In this document: positions 2,670 through 35,808 of the stretch, piece by piece | How positions within the stretch are numbered: position 1 is the stretch's first letter | Layout of the letters: each line of letters starts with the position of its first letter | IMG/VR virus record: IMGVR_UViG_3300045988_101805 | Location: 1-35,912 of that record | Origin: a virus | Reading direction: 5' to 3' (one strand) | DNA: 35,912 nucleotides | Notes under the pieces: generated by a model | Told to the model about the DNA's origin: nothing | Databases searched by the model: none | Seen by the model: only the letters and a program-made list of their open reading frames with translations | Made by a program: the position numbers and the translations under genes

Positions 2670-3305
2670 ATGGATATAGGAAAAATGATTAACCAAAGAA
2701 GAACCGAATTAAAACTAACTCTTGAACAGGTAGGGCAAGTAGTTGGTGTCGGCAAGAGTACCGTCAAAAAATGGGAAGACGGTTATATATCTAATATGAG
2801 AAGAGATAAAATAGCTTTATTAGCCAAAGTCTTAAAAATGAACCCGGTTTCTTTTATTACTGGTGAATTTAAAGAAGAAGAAGACCAAGCAATCCCACTT
2901 CCGCAAACAAATGTATTTATGCGACCTGTGTATGACAGCATTTCGGCAGGGTTCGGAGCCGTTGCTCAGGATGTGCCTGTTGACTATATGCCTACATACA
3001 TCACTTGCCCCTCAGAACAGGATAAATACATATGGATAAATGTTCACGGCGATTCTATGAGCCCTCTGATTGATGACGGCAGTAAAATTCTTATTAAAAA
3101 ACAAACTTCCGTTGACAGCGGTCAGATTGCCGCAGTCCTCGTTGATGATGAAGAGGCTGTTGTTAAAAAGGTTCTTTACAGCGATAACACCGTTGAACTC
3201 CATTCAGTCAACCCCTACTATCCCCCACGAGTGTTCAAAAATAACGACATCACCCGTGTTCAAATCCTCGGTCTTGTAAAAGAAGTAAGTAAGGCTTTGC
3301 AGTAA
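2670..3305 (+). CDS. CI/LexA-like phage repressor (XRE HTH + S24 autopeptidase)
   Basis: N-terminal HTH LTLEQVGQVVGVGKSTVKKWEDG. C-terminal GDSMSP (catalytic Ser) and VVKKV (Lys), the S24 Ser-Lys dyad. Confidence 0.92.
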   Translation: MDIGKMINQRRTELKLTLEQVGQVVGVGKSTVKKWEDGYISNMRRDKIALLAKVLKMNPVSFITGEFKEEEDQAIPLPQTNVFMRPVYDSISAGFGAVAQDVPVDYMPTYITCPSEQDKYIWINVHGDSMSPLIDDGSKILIKKQTSVDSGQIAAVLVDDEEAVVKKVLYSDNTVELHSVNPYYPPRVFKNNDITRVQILGLVKEVSKALQ

Positions 3306-3368: not shown

Positions 3369-3590
3369 ATGTCAGCAAAAGAAAAAATCATCAATCTTAT
3401 AAACGACTTTTCAGAAGAACAGCTTGAAGAACTGCTCACTATGTTGCAAAGTTTAAGACATATCGTAGATGACGCAGAAGATGACGCTTATTGTCAGAAA
3501 CTCTATGACGAATACAAGAATAACCCGTCTGATCCGAATGAGAATGTCAGCCTTGAAAATTTTGCAAATGAGTTGGGGATAAATCTGTAA
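3369..3590 (+). CDS. Putative antitoxin of the RelE-type TA pair
   Basis: 73-aa acidic protein with RBS AAGGAGGA. Its stop overlaps the toxin ATG (TAATG at 3588-3592). Confidence 0.6.
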   Translation: MSAKEKIINLINDFSEEQLEELLTMLQSLRHIVDDAEDDAYCQKLYDEYKNNPSDPNENVSLENFANELGINL

Positions 3591-3841
3591 TGAAGTATAA
3601 AATTGAACTGAACAAAAAGGCTCAGAAGTTTATTAAATCTCAGCCCCGCAACCAACAAGAACGAATTTTGAAAGCTGTTTCAAAACTTCCTGACGGTGAT
3701 GTAAAGGCCTTGTCAGGAAACAGCAACGCTTACCGCCTGCGTGTCGGCAATTATCGTGTTATCTATGAAATCAATAACGATATTCTTCTCATAACCGTTG
3801 TTGATGTCGGCAACCGAGGTCAGGTTTATAAGAGAATATAG
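3590..3841 (+). CDS. relE: RelE/ParE-family type II toxin
   Basis: YRLRVGNYRVIYEINNDILLITVVDVGNRGQVY is the typical RelE/StbE C-terminal signature. 83 aa. Confidence 0.85.
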   Translation: MKYKIELNKKAQKFIKSQPRNQQERILKAVSKLPDGDVKALSGNSNAYRLRVGNYRVIYEINNDILLITVVDVGNRGQVYKRI

Positions 3842-3850
3842 GTAATAACT

Positions 3851-4081
3851 ATGACTTGCTTTTATTGTAAAGGTGATATGGTTGACAGCACAACAACCCA
3901 TGTTGAAGATTTGGGCAACTGCATTGTCATCATTCGCAATGTTCCTTGTTCAAAGTGCAGTCAGTGCGGAGAAGTATCCTACAACGGTACTGTATTAAGA
4001 CAGATTGAACAGGTTATTGACAACCTCAAAAATTCACTTACCGAGGTTGCTATCGTAAACTATAAGCCAAGTGTAGCTTAG
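3851..4081 (+). CDS. Stand-alone YgiT/MqsA-type zinc-ribbon protein
   Basis: CFYCKG ... VPCSKCSQCGE pattern (CxxC ... CxxC) with the V-P-x-x-x-C context typical of the YgiT-type Zn finger. No HTH domain follows. Confidence 0.7.
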   Translation: MTCFYCKGDMVDSTTTHVEDLGNCIVIIRNVPCSKCSQCGEVSYNGTVLRQIEQVIDNLKNSLTEVAIVNYKPSVA

Positions 4082-4265: not shown

Positions 4266-5417
4266 ATGCGTTGTAAAAAATGTAAAAAGCAAATTCCGGA
4301 CAAATCTAACTTCTGCAATTGGTGCGGAACAGCAGTTGTCAAGAAACCGCACAGAAGAGCAGACGGAAACTATGAAAAATCAATCTGCATAAACGGCAGG
4401 CGAAAAACCTTTTATGCCAAGACCGAACGAGAGCTTACAAGGAAAATTGCAATGTACAGTGCTGAGCAGGAGCGTAGTAAACGATTTGATGAGCTGGCAG
4501 AGGATTACAAGGATAATTATCTTCCTGAGCTTTCCCCTACTACACAGAAAAGTTACAATACTATTCTTGATAAGTTTACAGATGAATTTAAAGGTCGTGC
4601 GGTAAATGAGATTAAGCCGTCGGATATTCAGAAGAGTATTGACAACCTTTCAAGAACATATACTGCGAAAACAAAACGAAACTACCTTGCCACATTGTCA
4701 AGTGTATTCTCTTTCGCTGTGAGAGCCTCAGAGTACGGAATTGACACTAACCCTTGTAACTATATTAAAATTAAAGGAAAGCCGTCCACGGAGCGTAGAA
4801 TAGCCACAGATGAAGAGATTAAAATAATTTGCAGGAATACAAAAGTTCATTTTGGGTTGTTCGCATTCTTCTTGCTGACAACGGGTTGTCGCAGGTCAGA
4901 GGCTTTGGCTCTCAAATATGAGGATATAGACTTTAAGAATGATGTCATACATATAACAAAGTCGGTCACTTGGGAAAAATCAATCCCTGAATTGAAAGCT
5001 CCTAAGACAGTTAAAGGCATTCGTGATATTTTTCTTGTACCGCACTTGAAAGATGTACTGCCAAAACGAAAAAGAGGTCTTATCTTCCCTTCTTCCAAAG
5101 GTCAGTTGATGACGGAGTGTCAATATGCTACTGAATGGCATAAATATTGTGCTGAATCGGGATTAGATGATTATGCCAATGAAAACAACCTCTCTCCCTT
5201 GACTGCTCATTGCCTTAGGCACAATTATGCTACGATACTTAACGAAGCAGGCATTGACACAAAACAGGCTATGCAGTTGCTCGGTCATGCAAATGAGGCA
5301 ACCACAAAAGATGTTTATACAGCGATAACTGAAAGAAAAAATAAATCCGACAAAGTTCTTGTAACGGAAAAATTTGAAAAACGCATTCAGGAAATCACCG
5401 CAGCCGACAACCCTTGA
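4266..5417 (+). CDS. int: Tyrosine integrase with N-terminal zinc ribbon
   Basis: CKKCKK...CNWCG ribbon. Catalytic residues in GCRRSEAL (R), HCLRHNYAT (HxxR) and LLGHANEATTKDVY (H...Y). RBS AAAGGAG. Confidence 0.93.
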   Translation: MRCKKCKKQIPDKSNFCNWCGTAVVKKPHRRADGNYEKSICINGRRKTFYAKTERELTRKIAMYSAEQERSKRFDELAEDYKDNYLPELSPTTQKSYNTILDKFTDEFKGRAVNEIKPSDIQKSIDNLSRTYTAKTKRNYLATLSSVFSFAVRASEYGIDTNPCNYIKIKGKPSTERRIATDEEIKIICRNTKVHFGLFAFFLLTTGCRRSEALALKYEDIDFKNDVIHITKSVTWEKSIPELKAPKTVKGIRDIFLVPHLKDVLPKRKRGLIFPSSKGQLMTECQYATEWHKYCAESGLDDYANENNLSPLTAHCLRHNYATILNEAGIDTKQAMQLLGHANEATTKDVYTAITERKNKSDKVLVTEKFEKRIQEITAADNP

Positions 5418-5418
5418 T

Positions 5419-5439
5419 TTTACGAAACTTTTACGTAAC
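5419..5439 (+). promoter_or_regulatory. Candidate arm-type integrase-binding repeats (P arm)
   Basis: TTTACGAAAC (5419-5428) and TTTACGTAAC (5430-5439), 11-bp phasing. The same dimer recurs at 5640-5660. Confidence 0.5.
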
Positions 5440-5495
5440 TTGTATGTATTTTGATGTCTTTTTGTGTCCTGTACTGACACTCTGAAAGCAAAAGA

Positions 5496-5541
5496 AAAAC
5501 AAGCCGATTGTTCGATGAACACTGAACTTTCGGCTTGTTTT
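5496..5541 (+). terminator. Hairpin terminator downstream of int
   Basis: AAAACAAGCCGA (5496-5507) pairs with TCGGCTTGTTTT (5530-5541). T-rich tail follows. The loop is long. Confidence 0.5.
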
Positions 5542-5549
5542 CTTAACTT

Positions 5550-5568
5550 TTTTTGAGAATCTCAAAAA
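5550..5568. repeat. 19-bp palindrome adjacent to the att core
   Basis: TTTTTGAGA a TCTCAAAAA, 9-bp perfect arms, ending 9 nt before the tRNA-like segment. Confidence 0.6.
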
Positions 5569-5577
5569 GTCACAATT

Positions 5578-5603
5578 TGGCGGAGACGGAGGGATTCGAA
5601 CCC
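5578..5603 (-). other. attP core: 26-nt mimic of a tRNA 3' end (T-loop + acceptor + CCA), probably tRNA-Ser-like
   Basis: The minus strand reads GGGTTCGAATCCCTCCGTCTCCGCCA (T-loop TTCGAAT, T-stem CCCTC, acceptor CGTCTCC, discriminator G, CCA). No D-arm or anticodon arm follows, so it is a fragment. Confidence 0.7.
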
Positions 5604-5639
5604 GATTTTACAGCAGATAAACACTGTATGAATGCCATT

Positions 5640-5660
5640 TTTACGAAACCTTTACGAAAT
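5640..5660 (+). promoter_or_regulatory. Candidate arm-type integrase-binding repeats (P' arm)
   Basis: TTTACGAAAC (5640-5649) and TTTACGAAAT (5651-5660), same 11-bp phasing and orientation as 5419-5439. Confidence 0.5.
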
Positions 5661-5812
5661 TACCTAAGTTAATATAGCAATCAAGTTATGATTGCGGTGC
5701 GACTTTCCTTACCTCATTGTACTTTACAATAGTATAAAAGTCAAGAAATTAGATTCATAAGATTGATTTATGGATTATTTTATAAATTGTTTATATTCTT
5801 GTGAGAAAACGC

Positions 5813-5841
5813 TTGACAAATACACCTATTAGGTGTATAAT
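5813..5841 (+). promoter_or_regulatory. Consensus sigma-A promoter with a 15-bp palindromic operator in its spacer
   Basis: TTGACA (5813-5818), 17-nt spacer, TATAAT (5836-5841). The spacer carries the perfect palindrome ACACCTA t TAGGTGT (5822-5836). Confidence 0.7.
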
Positions 5842-5866
5842 ATAGACAATGAAAGGGGGTGAGGAA

Positions 5867-5965
5867 ATGAAAAAGCCAAAAAAATCCACCATCAAAATGG
5901 TCGAATTAATAATCAAAGCGATACTTGCCCTATCTGCTCTGATAACAGCCATTAGATGGTGGTAA
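5867..5965 (+). CDS. 32-aa basic/hydrophobic peptide (type I toxin-like or small membrane peptide)
   Basis: RBS AAAGGGGGTGAGGAA then ATG 5867. Translates MKKPKKSTIKMVELIIKAILALSALITAIRWW. A GC-rich hairpin GAGGGGCTTAAGCCCCTC follows. Confidence 0.5.
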   Translation: MKKPKKSTIKMVELIIKAILALSALITAIRWW

Positions 5966-6041
5966 CATCAAGAGGGGCTTAAAGCCCCTCCCCCCTTATG
6001 GGGATAATATTATTATATCAGTATGAAAGGAAAAATGCAAT

Positions 6042-6209
6042 ATGAAGAAAAATAATTTTTGGTTATTCAGTCTTGTGTGCCTGATTATTGTATGTGTGGC
6101 AAGTAAATTCTTTGTTGTTGCTCGTGTAGCCTTGGGAATAAATGCAGTTATTGTACTTGCACAAACTATTCACGAATTTGTAATGTTCAGGAGAAATCAC
6201 AATGAATAA
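6042..6209 (+). CDS. 55-aa two-helix membrane protein
   Basis: RBS AAAGGAAAA. Translates MKKNNFWLFSLVCLIIVCVASKFFVVARVALGINAVIVLAQTIHEFVMFRRNHNE. Overlaps the next gene by 8 nt. Confidence 0.5.
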   Translation: MKKNNFWLFSLVCLIIVCVASKFFVVARVALGINAVIVLAQTIHEFVMFRRNHNE

Positions 6210-6378
6210 AATCAAAGAAGCAAGAATTGCAACAGGATTGAGCAGAGCAGAAATTGCAAAAATAATGGAAGTACCGTACCGCACTTGGGAAAATTGGGAA
6301 AGCGACAACAACCCGAACTACCCGAAACCATACTTTGAGCGACTTATTCTGAAAGAGCTTAAAAATATCCATAAATAA
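6202..6378 (+). CDS. 58-aa HTH-like small regulator
   Basis: RBS CAGGAGAAA. Translates MNKIKEARIATGLSRAEIAKIMEVPYRTWENWES..., an XRE-like HTH. Confidence 0.6.
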   Translation: MNKIKEARIATGLSRAEIAKIMEVPYRTWENWESDNNPNYPKPYFERLILKELKNIHK

Positions 6379-6383
6379 CAAAC

Positions 6384-6417
6384 TCCCCTCACCCACTTTT
6401 TACGGCGGATGAGGGGA
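6384..6417. terminator. Bidirectional hairpin between the micro-cassette (+) and the lysis genes (-)
   Basis: TCCCCTCA (6384-6391) pairs with TGAGGGGA (6410-6417), followed by ATATTTTT. Confidence 0.55.
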
Positions 6418-6449
6418 ATATTTTTGCAATTATGTGTTCGGTTTAAAAC

Positions 6450-7247
6450 TTATTTTATTTTTGCGGTATAGTCAAGGGCAATCCAGCCTGCACCGCTTTT
6501 GAGTTTGCCCCACTTTTTAGCGCCTGTGCCTGTTTTTTCGGCAACAATCGTGTACGCTCCGCCCTTGGGGATTGAGCCGCACACGGCATAGTTTGTGCCT
6601 GCACCTTTGCGAATATTTACACCGTCATTTGCGGTAATCCTGACAATGTACGGCTTAAACGCTTTTGATACACTCGGCTTTGCAGTCTGTGCAGGCTTTG
6701 TTGTGCCTGATGAGCTTGCCGACTTGTATTTATAGCCGAAATAGTTGCACATACCCTTGCAGATTGCCTCAGCGATAGCGTTTGTGTTATTGCGAATCCA
6801 GTTTGAGCCTGTCACGGTGTCATGAAATTCACACTCAACATACACAGTTAATGCCCTCGGCACATTGATTTCGTAAAGGTCGGTTTTATAGCTAACCGAA
6901 TCATCCTTGCCGGGCGAGATTGCTCCGAGGGCATTTTTCACCGATTCGGCAGCCTTTCTGCCGTTTGAGTTCAGGCAAAACACTCTTGTACCGCCTGTGT
7001 ATTTGCCGTTAAAAGCGTTGGTGTGAATCGGCATATGAATGTCTGCACCGAACTTGTCCGATTCGGGACAGCGTGTCTGCATAAGCGTTCCCGACTTTGC
7101 GACCATAACCTCAAAACCACAACGCTTAAGAGCTTTGGCTGTTGCGGCGGCGATTTTGTCGCACTGAGCCATTTCGTTTGTACCGCCAGTTGCATAGGTG
7201 TTTCTGTTCTGATTTGACGGACTGAGATAAATTCTTTTTGCTGGCAT
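6450..7247 (-). CDS. Endolysin: N-acetylmuramoyl-L-alanine amidase (Amidase_3-like) + C-terminal SH3 wall-binding domain
   Basis: YLSPSNQ..., IHMPIHTNAF and YVECEFHD are amidase-type Zn/catalytic motifs. The C-terminus GVNIRKGAGTNYAVCGSIPKGGAYTIV...WGKLKSGAGWIALDY is SH3b-like. Confidence 0.9.
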   Translation of the reverse strand: MPAKRIYLSPSNQNRNTYATGGTNEMAQCDKIAAATAKALKRCGFEVMVAKSGTLMQTRCPESDKFGADIHMPIHTNAFNGKYTGGTRVFCLNSNGRKAAESVKNALGAISPGKDDSVSYKTDLYEINVPRALTVYVECEFHDTVTGSNWIRNNTNAIAEAICKGMCNYFGYKYKSASSSGTTKPAQTAKPSVSKAFKPYIVRITANDGVNIRKGAGTNYAVCGSIPKGGAYTIVAEKTGTGAKKWGKLKSGAGWIALDYTAKIK

Positions 7248-7249
7248 AA

Positions 7250-7462
7250 TTATTCCTCACTTTCTTTAACTTCCGGCAAGCCACCGACACTTGTAAGCAT
7301 TGAGAGAATGCCGGCAAGAAGTGTTGAACTTGCAACCGCAACCCAGTTTACATCGCTCATTACTACCGCAACTGAGAGTGTTGCCGCTGCAGTCTGTGCC
7401 ATTGTCTTTGCAGCTCTGATGAGTGCCGCAACCGCCCATTTCTTAATTTTCTTCTTATTCAT
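7250..7462 (-). CDS. Holin (r1t-holin-like, 70 aa)
   Basis: ATG 7462 with AAAGGA RBS. KKWAVAALIRAAKTMAQTAAATL...VNWVAVASSTLLAGILSMLTSV gives two TM helices plus a charged tail. Lies directly upstream of the endolysin. Confidence 0.8.
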   Translation of the reverse strand: MNKKKIKKWAVAALIRAAKTMAQTAAATLSVAVVMSDVNWVAVASSTLLAGILSMLTSVGGLPEVKESEE

Positions 7463-7775
7463 TATTTTCATCCTTTCTAATAGGGTTAGTCGGTAAGTCC
7501 ATGACCTTCTCGTGCATATCGTCCATTGTGCCGTTCTGCCCGAGGTGATGATATGACTGATAACATTTATCATAAGCATCTTTGGCATAAACTTCAATCC
7601 ACCCTCTTTTTATGTATTTTTCGCCCGAGCGGATAAGCTCCGCCCTGAGCAATGACTGTGTACCTTTGCCGATTGCCTTAATCTTGCTCCACTCGGTTTT
7701 TACGATTGCAACAATTGCGGTAAGTATAACGCCAAAAAGGGCCTGCACCCAATATTGTATAATCCAATCCCACAT
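7455..7775 (-). CDS. N-terminally membrane-anchored protein of the lysis cassette
   Basis: WIIQYWVQALFGVILTAIVAIV is a TM helix. The stop overlaps the holin start by 8 nt. Confidence 0.6.
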   Translation of the reverse strand: MWDWIIQYWVQALFGVILTAIVAIVKTEWSKIKAIGKGTQSLLRAELIRSGEKYIKRGWIEVYAKDAYDKCYQSYHHLGQNGTMDDMHEKVMDLPTNPIRKDENNE

Positions 7776-34011: not shown

Positions 34012-34749
34012 ATGTTTTCAACACTATACAGAAGGGAGTCCTTGACTATACGAAAGACAATATACAACTGTAAATCATTGAACAACGAAGAACATTACAA
34101 AAATCTTGAAATTGAATATCCGCCCGGTTGTCCCATGTGTCACAAAACAGGTAATCCGTTTTGTTTAAGTTCCTACTATATTGAAGATGAATTTACCCGC
34201 CCAAATCTTTTTGTTCATTTTTTCTGTCAAAATTGTGAAAGGACATTTTTAGGGAATTACTATATAGGTCCTTATTACGATAAAACTGAATTTGAAAGTT
34301 TTGAGCCGGTTTACAATACCAAAGAACGAGAATTTCCTAAACACATAAGAGAGTTGTCACCTGATTTTTGCGACATATATAACCAAGCATACGCTTCTGA
34401 ACAGTATGGATTGAAAGATGTTTCGGGTATGGCTTACAGAAAAGCCTTAGAGTTCTTAGTAAAGGATTACGCAATACTGTTACAGCCGAACGATATGGAG
34501 AAGATTGTTAAAGCACCATTATCAAGATGTATTAGCGATTACATTGATAACAAAAAAATCAAGAAATTAGCAATAGCCTCTGCTTGGCTTGGTAATGATG
34601 AAACACATTACGAACGAAAATTCAAAGATTACACTATTGATAACTTAGTCGAATTTATAAACGCTATTGTTTCTTTCATAGATTCAGACATTTCTGTAGC
34701 AATCGCTGAAAATATGATAGAAGAACAAAAAGCTACTCATCAGTCGTAA
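34012..34749 (+). CDS. Zinc-ribbon + DUF4145-like (HEPN-clan-like) protein
   Basis: CPMCHK...CQNCERTF ribbon. The C-terminal half AYRKALEFLVKDYAI...WLGNDETHYE resembles DUF4145. Start uncertain (no RBS at 34012). Confidence 0.65.
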   Translation: MFSTLYRRESLTIRKTIYNCKSLNNEEHYKNLEIEYPPGCPMCHKTGNPFCLSSYYIEDEFTRPNLFVHFFCQNCERTFLGNYYIGPYYDKTEFESFEPVYNTKEREFPKHIRELSPDFCDIYNQAYASEQYGLKDVSGMAYRKALEFLVKDYAILLQPNDMEKIVKAPLSRCISDYIDNKKIKKLAIASAWLGNDETHYERKFKDYTIDNLVEFINAIVSFIDSDISVAIAENMIEEQKATHQS

Positions 34750-34992: not shown

Positions 34993-35808
34993 ATGAGTGA
35001 CCAAAACATAAATGATACTGCTTATGGTGTTACAAAAGCTGTTTTAGAATCAGAAGCAGTAAGTAATCTTACAAATCCACCAACAAAAGTTGCAGGTGGT
35101 CTGTTAGCCGATTTCATAAACTTAACTGTAGGTGGCATACACTATGCTTCAATAAAAGCCGAATTAAAGCGCCAAAAAAAGTTTGAAGACTTTAAAGCTA
35201 ACATTCAAAAGGGTGTAGATAATATTCCAACAGAACATAAAGTTGAATCGAGAGAATCGATTATTGGACCTGCTCTTGAAAAAGCGAAATACTTTATGAA
35301 TGAAGACGAAATTCGTGAAATGTTTGAAAAGTTAATCGTCAATTCATTCGACAGTAGAAAAATCGAAAAAATTCATCCGTCTTTTTCTGACATCATTCAA
35401 CAAATGTCGCCTATAGATGCCCAGAATTTGAAATGTTTTGCAAACGAAGAGCGTTTACCTGTGTGCGAAATACAATTAAACCTAACAGACGCTTCTCACA
35501 GAACTTTGCTAACTAATGTTTTTTGCGGTAATAAATTGTGTAATTCAATTGAACAACAATCAATATCTTTGTCATCCTTATCTCGTATAGGGATTATAAA
35601 AATTGCATACGATGAATACTTAACCGATGATTCGTTTTATAAGATTTTTGATTCATTACCTTTAGTGATAGGTTTGAAAAATCAAGTTGAAGCTGATAAC
35701 AAAATTAATAACACTAATTTTAAAATTGATTTGCAAAAGGGAGTGGCAACACTTACTCCCGTGGGAAAAGCTTTTATTGATGTTTGTCTTCGTCCTTTGC
35801 CCACTTAA
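34993..35808 (+). CDS. Abi-alpha (DUF4393)-like abortive-infection candidate
   Basis: IIGPALEKAKYFMNEDEIREMFEKLIVNSFDSRKIEKIHPSFSDIIQQMSPIDAQNLK matches my memory of the Abi_alpha core (ALE...L..MFA.LL....HPsF..II.qLsp.DA..L). Confidence 0.65.
   Translation: MSDQNINDTAYGVTKAVLESEAVSNLTNPPTKVAGGLLADFINLTVGGIHYASIKAELKRQKKFEDFKANIQKGVDNIPTEHKVESRESIIGPALEKAKYFMNEDEIREMFEKLIVNSFDSRKIEKIHPSFSDIIQQMSPIDAQNLKCFANEERLPVCEIQLNLTDASHRTLLTNVFCGNKLCNSIEQQSISLSSLSRIGIIKIAYDEYLTDDSFYKIFDSLPLVIGLKNQVEADNKINNTNFKIDLQKGVATLTPVGKAFIDVCLRPLPT

Follow-up and report, generated by a model that had tools for sequence, protein, structure and literature searches.

We analysed a stretch of viral DNA of 35,912 nucleotides (IMG/VR record IMGVR_UViG_3300045988_101805, positions 1 to 35,912; hereafter the window), which is the complete genome of a temperate phage of gut Clostridia in its circular arrangement around the phage attachment site (attP), and focused on a small cassette at 5813-6417, about 210 bp from the attP core. 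On the plus strand, the cassette carries a consensus promoter, P(op), with a palindrome in its spacer, followed by three tiny open reading frames (ORFs), which encode a 32-aa membrane peptide (ORF1), a 55-aa membrane protein (ORF2) and a 58-aa helix-turn-helix (HTH) protein (ORF3), and by a closing hairpin. These components had been named by an original prediction, which read them as a single operon plausibly controlled by its own last product and placed in an accessory ("moron") slot next to attP. Promoter, genes, closing hairpin and slot were all borne out, the three genes by coding signatures and patterns of conservation; the extent of the palindrome and the single-operon view needed correction, and two elements had been missed, namely a pair of hairpins at 5972-6003 and a convergent antisense promoter, P_as, at 6012-6040 on the minus strand.

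The same cassette, at 80-100% protein identity, was found in twelve IMG/VR contigs and several ENA/Logan contigs, and a wider family (loci designated L001 onwards) was collected with a degenerate DNA pattern for the C-terminus of ORF1 (ALITAI[KR]WW-stop). The family comprises 22 contigs from GTDB Clostridia genomes (Acutalibacteraceae, Eubacteriales, Roseburia, Ruminococcus and Lachnospiraceae, with the Roseburia genomes L049 and L057 as cultured carriers) and 39 metagenome contigs. Its architecture is constant: promoter, ORF1 with its Shine-Dalgarno (SD) sequence, hairpins A and B, an ATTATAnCA box, ORF2 with its SD, and a small DNA-binding gene that overlaps ORF2 or follows it closely. No match was found among INPHARED phages by DNA, nor among phages and PLSDB plasmids by tblastn with the ORF1 consensus, and a full-text literature search with peptide motifs of the three ORFs found no paper. 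The cassette is almost certainly a real, conserved unit, and its family is widespread and not described in the libraries or literature searched.

Two loci carry the cassette in duplicate. L039 (680-2159 of a contig from Logan SRR23924964) has two different tandem cassettes beside a HicA/HicB pair; in the first of them, ORF1 and ORF2 are replaced by a transmembrane (TM) peptide whose tail reads KDSKKKNRQRQKPGKTKKRKR and a 59-aa two-TM protein, neither of which is homologous. L065 (10200-12600 of OGYK01000233.1) has two cassettes, both downstream of an integrase and 1.8 kb from each other; the second one lacks a consensus promoter and carries a -1 frameshift in the A-run of ORF1 (ATGGGCAAAAATAAAAGCC). 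This frameshift allele recurs in at least nine independent contigs, including L064, L070, L075, L077, L082, L090, L093 and L096, and may be a pseudogene, a case of slippage-dependent expression, or a junction left by integration inside ORF1.

Genes and signals of the cassette

P(op) matches the sigma-A consensus at 12 of 12 positions (5813-5841, plus strand; -35 TTGACA at 5813-5818, -10 TATAAT at 5836-5841, spacer of 17 nt), as had been claimed. Perfect TTGACA-17-TATAAT promoters occur only twice in the window, here and at 2540-2568 on the minus strand; since four matches with at most one mismatch were found in the window against 0.34 expected, P(op) is not a chance match. In close relatives it is invariant while the sequence directly upstream diverges: the stretch from promoter to peptide is nearly invariant, with free variation in the 25 nt ahead of the -35. 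Across the family, the promoter in 35 of 59 distinct upstream regions matches the consensus at all 12 positions and has a 17-nt spacer.

The palindrome, which had been given as 15 bp, does lie between the hexamers but is actually 19 bp long (9-1-9, ATACACCTA-T-TAGGTGTAT, 5820-5838), filling the spacer and extending over the first three bases of the -10. It has a single copy in the window, and the search for further copies that had been proposed found the 19-mer in only nine IMG/VR contigs, every one with the same cassette. When the spacer of the window promoter was shuffled, arms of at least 7 nt arose in 1% of trials. Consistently, 23 of the 25 distinct perfect promoters of the family have a perfect inverted repeat of at least 6 nt in the spacer; the arms average 7.2 nt, compared with 3.7 nt once the spacers are shuffled (N = 25). 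The two exceptions are L058, the only spacer without any palindrome (best arm 3 nt), whose ORF1 start is lost, and L043, whose repeat has a single mismatch.

ORF1 (5867-5965, plus strand; near-perfect SD AAAGGGGGTGA) encodes a single-pass membrane peptide, MKKPKKSTIKMVELIIKAILALSALITAIRWW. It has a single hydrophobic helix (KD15 maximum 2.4), and its length is under the ceiling for type I toxins (~60 aa). The family consensus, (K/R-rich)-KPT[AT]FEIAELIIEA.VAIAALITAI[KR]WW, covers products of 32-38 aa from 43 distinct DNA variants. That the frame is translated is indicated by the entropy of its three codon positions (0.90/0.34/1.27 over the 17 codons outside the search pattern), and in close relatives the frame accommodates an in-frame insertion of 3 nt and all three substitutions in the TM part are synonymous. 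An in-frame alternative ATG at 5849, 7 nt past the -10, would extend the peptide to 38 aa, and it is the sole ATG in relatives with ATA at the 5867 codon. This sublineage (L007, L009, L011, L012, L066, L073, L078, L086 and L099), in which the SD is also weakened from GAGG to GATG, suggests a leaderless mRNA or selection for lower translation; the start position of the first L039 cassette is likewise ATA. Searches of Pfam and NCBIfam with ORF1 and eight family members gave no match, even with E values up to 10 allowed, and ORF1 fell outside the described type I toxin families with which it was compared (Fst/Ldr, TxpA/BsrG, Hok, Hol_Tox and others). Family members repeatedly but weakly matched phrog_6632, of unknown function, and when 1.8 billion representatives were searched exhaustively with ORF1 by HMMER, just seven small proteins were returned. 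A 53-aa minus-strand frame at 5791-5952, antisense to ORF1 and downstream of P_as, is open in many relatives, not in all, and is probably no gene.

Between ORF1 and ORF2 stand the tandem hairpins A and B (5972-6003, plus strand; folding free energy, dG, -22.9 kcal/mol, z -3.2). Hairpin A (5972-5990) reads GAGGGGC-TTAAA-GCCCCTC in the window and GAGGGGC-GAAA-GCCCCTC in the family; hairpin B (5992-6003) reads CCCC-TTAT-GGGG (family CCCC..GGGG) and is followed by an A/U-rich tract. Hairpin A is kept in 26 diverse cassettes, six of its seven pairs having undergone compensatory change in one or more sequences, and in L007 and L086 it is swapped for a hairpin of unrelated sequence. The pair is presumed to act as an attenuator, an RNA stabiliser or a module for pairing between sense and antisense RNAs. 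The C-rich linker between the hairpins (5985-5995, CCCCTCCCCCC) contains, as seen by eye, an anti-SD-like CCUCC that could pair with the SD of ORF1 (5853-5866) or of ORF2 (6026-6031), a possible means of translational sequestration.

P_as is a predicted extended -10 promoter facing ORF1 (TTGCAT-17-TGnTATAAT, 6012-6040, minus strand), in which the -35 is the complement of 6035-6040, the TG lies at 6020-6019 and the -10 is the complement of 6012-6017. From its predicted start near 6005, transcription would cross the complements of hairpin B and then of hairpin A before entering ORF1. On the minus strand, the P_as sequence arises from the ATTATAnCA box, the ORF2 SD (as its complement) and the CAA ahead of the ORF2 start codon. 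The pattern TTGnnn-17-(TG)n-TATAAT was found in about 48 of 55 distinct cassettes, with the 17-nt spacing in 48; among the 55, the -10 reads TATAAT in 36, TATACT in eight and TACAAT in five, and 38 carry the TG extension. The first L039 cassette, with its unrelated ORF1 and ORF2 analogues, has a perfect TTGACA-17-TATAAT at this position, and in L037, which lacks ORF1 and keeps the ORF2 SD and start, P_as has decayed to CTGCAT...GTATAA. That it is perfect in the one and decayed in the other, and that the ATTATA and CA positions have no visible plus-strand role, argues against P_as as a by-product of the ORF2 translation signals; it is probably a functional promoter, from which an antisense RNA is predicted. 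A plus-strand internal promoter for ORF2-ORF3 at the ATTATA was considered and rejected by eye, with no -35 at a workable spacing; the conserved hexamers of this region fit the minus strand. The P_as region matched no Rfam family, and Rfam at a permissive threshold gave only chance-level matches across 5300-6600.

ORF2 (6042-6209, plus strand) has the two hydrophobic helices expected of it and is a 55-aa two-TM protein. The motif NFWF..LC.LLI....G....LRIA..ANA aligns 36 distinct family members, the changes among close relatives are conservative, and the start, behind an SD, is GTG in most of the family. It matched no known family in Pfam, NCBIfam or PADLOC. ORF3 (6202-6378, plus strand) overlaps ORF2 by 8 nt and encodes a four-helix, Aca10-like HTH protein of the XRE type. 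The cassette ends in a hairpin (6384-6417; dG -18.7 kcal/mol, z -4.1), a bidirectional terminator that it has in common with the convergent amidase gene.

The original single-operon view is therefore incomplete. The three genes do form a unit, but conserved hairpins split ORF1 from ORF2-ORF3, P_as faces ORF1, and in L037 ORF2-ORF3 occur with neither ORF1 nor the palindromic promoter.

Third-gene regulators and their palindromes

Against Pfam, ORF3 matched HTH_19 and HTH_3, both under the cutoff. Its best sequence match in the PDB was Aca10 (7XI5, E 1.1e-3, residues 4-51 against 11-57). The AlphaFold2 model (pLDDT 91) has four helices, and its top Foldseek matches were Aca1, the C-terminal domain of HigA2 and a lambda-repressor-like protein, with CylR2 (1UTX, 2XIU) also among the fold matches. 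In close relatives the gene has collected many synonymous and few replacement changes. PADLOC gave weak HTH matches to RmrA only. A match to VC1465/XafT (27 bits against a cutoff of 70, HTH only) was not taken as evidence for a recombination directionality factor, and an excisionase role, for which position alone spoke, was dropped, the fold being XRE and not of the MerR/Xis type.

The third gene of the family falls into five classes, three HTH or ribbon-helix-helix (RHH) classes confirmed by Pfam and two RHH-like by weak evidence. Most cassettes encode a 63-aa RHH protein (RHH_1, above the Pfam cutoff) and carry the palindrome ACATACTGCAAGCAGTATGT or variants of it; the window-type 58-aa XRE HTH goes with ATACACCTATTAGGTGTAT; a 66-aa HTH_3 protein (above the Pfam cutoff; L043 and L048) with ACCGCACAATGTGCGGT; an RHH-like class of 55 or 65 aa (L050 and L063) with CATAGTTATATAACTATG; and a 61-aa RHH-like class (L083) with CATACCCCGCGGGGTATG. 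The label RHH-like for the proteins of L050, L063 and L083 stands for an RHH_7 hit together with a common ..YIK.LIRADI.. motif: the 61-aa protein of L083 matched RHH_7 weakly (E 0.024, below cutoff), and the L050 protein matched no Pfam family.

The five classes thus pair one-to-one with five palindrome types, all in the same 17-nt spacer. The pairing holds even within a single locus, as the tandem L039 cassettes combine an HTH with a window-type operator and an RHH with an RHH-type operator. In L040 the window-type operator differs at its centre base, and ORF1 has diverged (MKKPKKTTIQMVDLIIKAIVAIAALITAIKWW). Of the evidence available, the class-by-class switching of regulator and palindrome speaks most strongly for binding of the palindrome by the third-gene product.

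A second line of evidence comes from Aca10, a dimeric HTH protein encoded by the last gene of acrIC7-acrIC6-aca10, whose minimal site ATACGCTCATTGAGCGTAT (IR2) was mapped by electrophoretic mobility shift assay and overlaps its own promoter (PMC9410881). The Aca10 site and the window palindrome are identical at 13 of 19 bases and have the same 9-1-9 layout (common ATAC....A-T-T....GTAT). Because of the class switching and the Aca10 match, autorepression by ORF3 is well supported: the palindrome at 5820-5838 is, on good comparative grounds, the predicted target of the cassette's own ORF3 product, and ORF3 very probably represses P(op) through it by occluding the promoter. The earlier proposal of a plausible autorepressor thereby gains from both the pairing and the operator layout. 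The ORF3 regulator may be distant kin of the Aca10 family.

Relatives of the 58-aa HTH protein (46-81% identity) also close other small operons at prophage ends. Such operons were seen in L013-L015 (e.g. L015 358-1496) and L041 (111-909); one encodes a very acidic 94-aa protein and a 204-aa protein and is convergent with an amidase, and another encodes an 84-aa protein and a DUF551-like 91-aa protein. It is possible that these proteins are anti-defence cargo under an Aca-like regulator.

The likeness to Aca10 raises the question of whether the cassette itself is an acr-aca-like operon, which would fire on DNA entry, disable a host defence through its cargo and then be shut off by ORF3. Aca10 and Aca1 are the nearest proteins to ORF3, the geometry of the operator is that of Aca10, and relatives of ORF3 end operons with other small cargo (L013-15 and L041). 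Yet the cargo here consists of two hydrophobic membrane peptides, unlike the known soluble anti-defence proteins, most family members have an RHH and not an Aca-type HTH, and neither P_as nor the ORF1 knock-outs described below would be explained. We consider an anti-defence role very unlikely.

Function and genomic setting

The evidence on function comes from the pattern in which the genes are kept and lost. Wherever ORF1 had an intact SD and start and enough flank, ORF2 and ORF3 were present (34/34 cassettes), and 11 cassettes keep ORF2 and ORF3 intact with ORF1 inactivated, by the -1 frameshift in the A-run (at least nine contigs), by loss of SD and start, or by loss of the promoter. Fragments of ORF1 without ORF2 and ORF3 were always degenerate, and in L037 ORF2-ORF3 stand "solo" under a different promoter, without ORF1 and without the palindrome. 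The ORF2 family co-occurs with every ORF3 fold, which implies that ORF3 is an exchangeable regulator and that the specific partner of ORF2 is ORF1; in the first L039 cassette both slots are changed together. The peptide in that ORF1 slot has a hydrophobic N-terminus and a Lys/Arg-rich tail, and a hydrophobic N-terminus with a Lys-rich C-terminus is the shape of the type I toxins of C. difficile prophages (PMC6563280). Presence and absence, slot replacement and partner specificity together point, indirectly, to ORF1 as harmful and to ORF2 as its partner.

These asymmetries, together with the double negative control, fit a module of toxin, immunity protein and repressor to which a type-I-like antisense layer is added. 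We therefore favour, at about an even chance of being right, a cassette composed of a putative toxin (ORF1), a membrane immunity protein (ORF2) and an exchangeable autorepressor (ORF3), with antisense control in addition. In such a module, a dimer of the 58-aa HTH protein would bind the 19-bp palindrome and occlude RNA polymerase, giving negative autoregulation. The ORF1 peptide would be harmful if over-produced, as a small pore-forming or holin-like toxin, and the two-TM ORF2 protein would be its cognate membrane immunity protein. The hairpins after ORF1 would limit read-through into ORF2-ORF3, and P_as, which lies over the ORF2 ribosome-binding site, would silence ORF1 by antisense RNA or transcriptional interference as a second lock. 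The unit would be repressed in the lysogen; if repressor and antisense RNA were lost, through loss of the prophage or shut-off by an invading phage, a burst of ORF1 would follow. The module might thus serve prophage maintenance, exclusion of competitors, or both. A more specific version, a hybrid module with three locks (exchangeable repressor, cis-antisense RNA and two-TM immunity) acting as a prophage-addiction and/or abortive-infection device and marking the att-proximal prophage ends across gut Clostridia, is tentative and on balance doubtful.

Several observations weigh against this toxin/immunity reading. The expression signals of ORF1 (consensus promoter, near-perfect SD) are far stronger than those of ORF2, which sits behind the hairpins and usually starts with GTG, an awkward arrangement for a stoichiometric immunity protein. 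Neither ORF1 nor ORF2 matched a known toxin, holin, immunity or defence family in the libraries searched. For the antisense transcript, the search for an intrinsic terminator turned up no convincing candidate. As regards the repressor, the Aca10 match is marginal (E 1e-3) and R44, which is critical in Aca10, aligns with Asn in ORF3. Sampling by the ORF1 C-terminus under-represents cassettes without ORF1 and makes the C-terminal conservation partly an artefact of the search. Finally, the presence/absence asymmetry could also fit a signal/receptor pair or a dispensable exclusion factor.

The last of these possibilities corresponds to a non-toxic unit of lysogenic conversion or superinfection exclusion, in which ORF1 and ORF2 would block DNA entry or the receptor or transporter used by competitors and P_as would fine-tune their expression. 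Its attractions are that cassettes at prophage ends, beside att and lysis genes, occupy the classic moron slot, that ORF1 and ORF2 are both membrane proteins under a negative autoregulation that would give steady expression, and that the strong promoter and SD imply an abundant ORF1 product. Such a unit would leave unexplained why ORF1 is so often knocked out with ORF2 and ORF3 kept and why intact ORF1 is never found alone, as well as the consensus-strength P_as opposite ORF1 and the peptide shaped like a type I toxin in the same slot, and we hold it to be unlikely.

Signalling is harder still to reconcile with the locus. ORF1 would then be a pheromone precursor of the ComS, SHP or PrgQ kind, with ORF2 and ORF3 as a CylR1/CylR2-like sensor and repressor in a layout resembling prgQ/prgX. 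The shape of ORF1 would suit this role (basic N-terminus, hydrophobic core, C-terminal WW), as would a small TM protein next to a small XRE HTH with CylR2 among its fold matches, the joint change of ORF1 and ORF2 in L039, and the solo ORF2-ORF3 pairs. Against this, the scan of window ORFs turned up no receptor of the RRNPP type, ORF3 has no tetratricopeptide repeat (TPR) part, the operator controls the cassette alone, so that the circuit would have no output, and the combination of one ORF2 family with unrelated ORF3 folds argues against a specific ORF2-ORF3 contact. We rate peptide signalling as more improbable than an anti-defence role.

The size and charge of ORF1 (32-38 aa, cationic, Trp-ended, leaderless) would also suit a bacteriocin, released possibly by phage lysis, that kills non-lysogens, with ORF2 for protection and ORF3 for regulation. 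Bacteriocin loci have the same layout of small membrane immunity protein, DNA-binding regulator and inverted repeat in the promoter, and orphan immunity, here ORF2-ORF3 without ORF1, is typical of such systems. The described clusters, however, have an ABC exporter, which is absent from the cassette and from the window ORFs examined; a plain TM helix after a positive-inside N-terminus should keep ORF1 in the membrane of its producer; and an antisense promoter is foreign to bacteriocin loci. This explanation is, in our view, quite improbable, and the toxin/immunity module remains the one that we prefer.

The position of the cassette bears on a further proposal, that of lysis timing. The original prediction had offered toxin/immunity, exclusion and lysis timing side by side; the presence/absence asymmetry and P_as favour the first, and the last is unlikely because many family members do not adjoin lysis genes. 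Supposing that ORF1 and ORF2 were a holin/antiholin-like pair, they could modulate the adjacent holin-endolysin module, and in the window, L044 and L063 the cassette and the genes for holin and amidase or M23 lysin do converge, while in L053, L089, L051 and L080 it follows closely downstream of lysis genes. The phage, however, has its own holin gene at 7250-7597, the cassette runs on the other strand under a promoter and repressor of its own, many of its relatives adjoin integrases, host genes or other genes, the adjacent lysis modules are interchangeable, and ORF1 and ORF2 match no holin family. Lysis timing is thus the least probable of the readings considered.

Similarity to the window begins exactly at 5578, the tRNA end, in L002, L004, L005 and L007 and about 40-50 nt upstream of the -35 in L001, L003, L009 and L011, and it often stops near 6438, just beyond the terminator, from where different lysis modules follow; these breakpoints mark the cassette as a mosaic unit. 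In integrated relatives the cassette is the outermost feature of the prophage: the DNA left of 5578 is that of the host (SleB-like host genes in L005), and L033-L035 have the order host metabolic genes, tRNA-Met, cassette. Many loci have the cassette within a few hundred bases of tRNA genes, and four different tRNA att sites were seen overall (among them tRNA-Arg in L001 and L009 and tRNA-Pro in L037). In other loci it directly follows integrases (L065, L081 and others) or stands at a junction with host genes (L046). The predicted moron slot is thus confirmed, beside four tRNA att sites and next to lysis genes or integrases, and the common denominator of these positions is the end of an integrated element, not a lysis module.

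In the window itself, a tyrosine integrase gene (4266-5417) lies directly upstream of the attP region. The attP core is a 26-nt fragment of a tRNA 3' end (…GGGTTCGAATCCCTCCGTCTCCGCCA, 5578-5603, minus strand), read directly; ARAGORN found no whole tRNA there. It is flanked by tandem TTTACGAAAC-type repeats at 5419/5430 and 5640/5651 (within 5419-5660; direct-repeat families D1 and D2), one pair on each side of the tRNA fragment with the members 11 bp apart, which are presumed to be arm-type sites bound by the integrase. A strong hairpin after the integrase gene (5496-5541) was mis-scored by Rfam as miRNA-like. A promoter-like TTGACT-17-TACAAT on the minus strand (5716-5744), divergent from P(op), faces attP; it would face host DNA once the phage was integrated and is confined to the window-type left flank.

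Further to the left, Cro-like genes on the minus strand, among them one for a 73-aa HTH protein (2295-2516), are preceded by the perfect promoter at 2540-2568, which is divergent from a CI-like repressor gene with HTH and S24 (Peptidase_S24) domain matches (2670-3305, plus strand). Together they presumably form the lysis/lysogeny switch of the phage, and the promoter at 2540-2568 is the early lytic promoter. Upstream of the integrase, genes for a RelB-like antitoxin (weak match), a ParE-family toxin and then a YgiT/MqsA-type zinc-finger protein (3369-4081, plus strand) form a second, conventional toxin-antitoxin (TA)-like unit in the lysogeny module. On the other side, the convergent amidase gene (6450-7247, minus strand) and the holin gene (Phage_r1t_holin; 7250-7597, minus strand) are followed by the tail-to-replication genes, also on the minus strand. 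Accessory genes on the plus strand form a block that includes one for a 271-aa Abi_alpha (abortive-infection) protein (34993-35808, plus strand), whose neighbours at 34012-34749, 89-574 and 687-1412 belong to no family.

If the toxin/immunity reading is correct, small-peptide toxin/immunity modules of prophages from uncultured gut Clostridia would form a coherent and easily recognised family, whose signature would be a consensus promoter carrying a palindrome between its hexamers, a KWW-ended peptide, a GNRA hairpin and an antisense promoter. The three-gene unit has no named family in Pfam, NCBIfam or PADLOC, and its third-gene proteins match generic HTH and RHH models only. About five orthogonal repressor/operator classes, HTH and RHH, would then act on the same promoter and could provide parts for genetic tools in Clostridia. 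The cassette would also join Aca-type protein autorepression with type-I-like antisense control, two principles normally treated apart, and may influence how stable prophages are in the gut and how phages compete there.

Comparison with known systems

With the acr-aca operon acrIC7-acrIC6-aca10 (PMC9410881) the cassette has in common a small HTH gene in last place of an operon of tiny genes, a strong promoter and a 19-bp 9-1-9 palindrome, so that two hallmarks of acr-aca loci, the 3'-terminal small HTH gene and an inverted repeat overlapping the -35/-10 of a strong promoter, are apparent in its sequence. The differences lie in the cargo, which in acr operons consists of soluble CRISPR inhibitors and here of membrane peptides, in the RHH regulators of most family members, in the internal hairpins and P_as, in the unconserved R44 of Aca10, and in the hosts, Clostridia versus Pseudomonas.

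Type I TA loci of Firmicutes include bsrG/SR4 and txpA/ratA of B. subtilis. Those of prophages, such as CD0977.1-RCd11 of C. difficile and its relatives (PMC6563280, PMC7699646), resemble the cassette in a hydrophobic peptide of at most 60 aa with its own sigma-A promoter, in a convergent promoter (predicted in the cassette) placed for an RNA that overlaps the 3' part of the peptide mRNA, and in their location in prophages or mobile elements. No sequence kinship connects them with the cassette, the polarity of ORF1 is opposite (basic N-terminus, TM helix, WW end), its antisense RNA is a prediction, and classical type I loci lack the protein repressor and second membrane protein of the cassette. 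From type II TA systems of the HigBA kind it is set apart by a third gene that is HTH only (RHH in relatives), with no neutralising domain, and by the lack of a soluble enzyme in ORF1 and ORF2. In omega-epsilon-zeta, omega is a separate RHH repressor of the operon promoter, the regulator module is exchangeable, and zeta and epsilon are soluble. The cassette likewise has a separate, small and exchangeable promoter repressor that is not a domain of an antitoxin; it differs in gene order, in the antisense layer and from the soluble zeta and epsilon, and has no homology to them.

The clusters of the leaderless bacteriocins aureocin A70 (aurRI) and garvicin KS (gakIR) encode peptides of 30-34 aa, usually three or four, and an ABC exporter (bioRxiv 10.64898/2026.09.04.749385). 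Like the cassette, they combine a membrane immunity gene with a small DNA-binding regulator and have an inverted repeat over the peptide promoter. They need their exporter (gakT, aurT), and the cassette has one peptide, no exporter and P_as. In the cytolysin operon of E. faecalis, CylR1 is a small membrane protein and CylR2 a 66-aa XRE HTH protein that binds an inverted repeat in the toxin promoter (cited in bioRxiv 10.64898/2026.09.04.749385). The likeness consists in a small membrane protein encoded with an XRE HTH and in a promoter that bears an inverted repeat and drives a gene for a membrane-active peptide, putative in the case of ORF1. The CylR genes differ in being divergent from the toxin genes and in responding to a processed lantibiotic subunit, and the pairing of ORF2 with unrelated folds argues against a contact of the CylR1-CylR2 type.

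The prgQ/prgX region of pCF10 combines a repressed strong promoter, a tiny hydrophobic ORF, a hairpin and a convergent antisense promoter. The cassette has the same succession of promoter, tiny ORF, hairpin and convergent promoter; PrgX, in contrast, is a large RRNPP receptor, conjugation genes follow downstream, and no such receptor was seen among the window ORFs scanned. For RRNPP signalling in general (ComRS, Rgg/SHP, PrgX/PrgQ and AimRP), the same scan found no HTH-TPR receptor beside ORF1. PADLOC-DB, searched for defence systems, gave no match to ORF1 or ORF2.

The cassette therefore departs in at least one defining feature from every known family with which it was compared. Taken together, the comparisons leave it, with an even chance in our estimate, as an autoregulated accessory cassette of prophages of the toxin/immunity type, which resembles acr-aca operons in its putative repressor and operator and type I loci in its predicted antisense layer.

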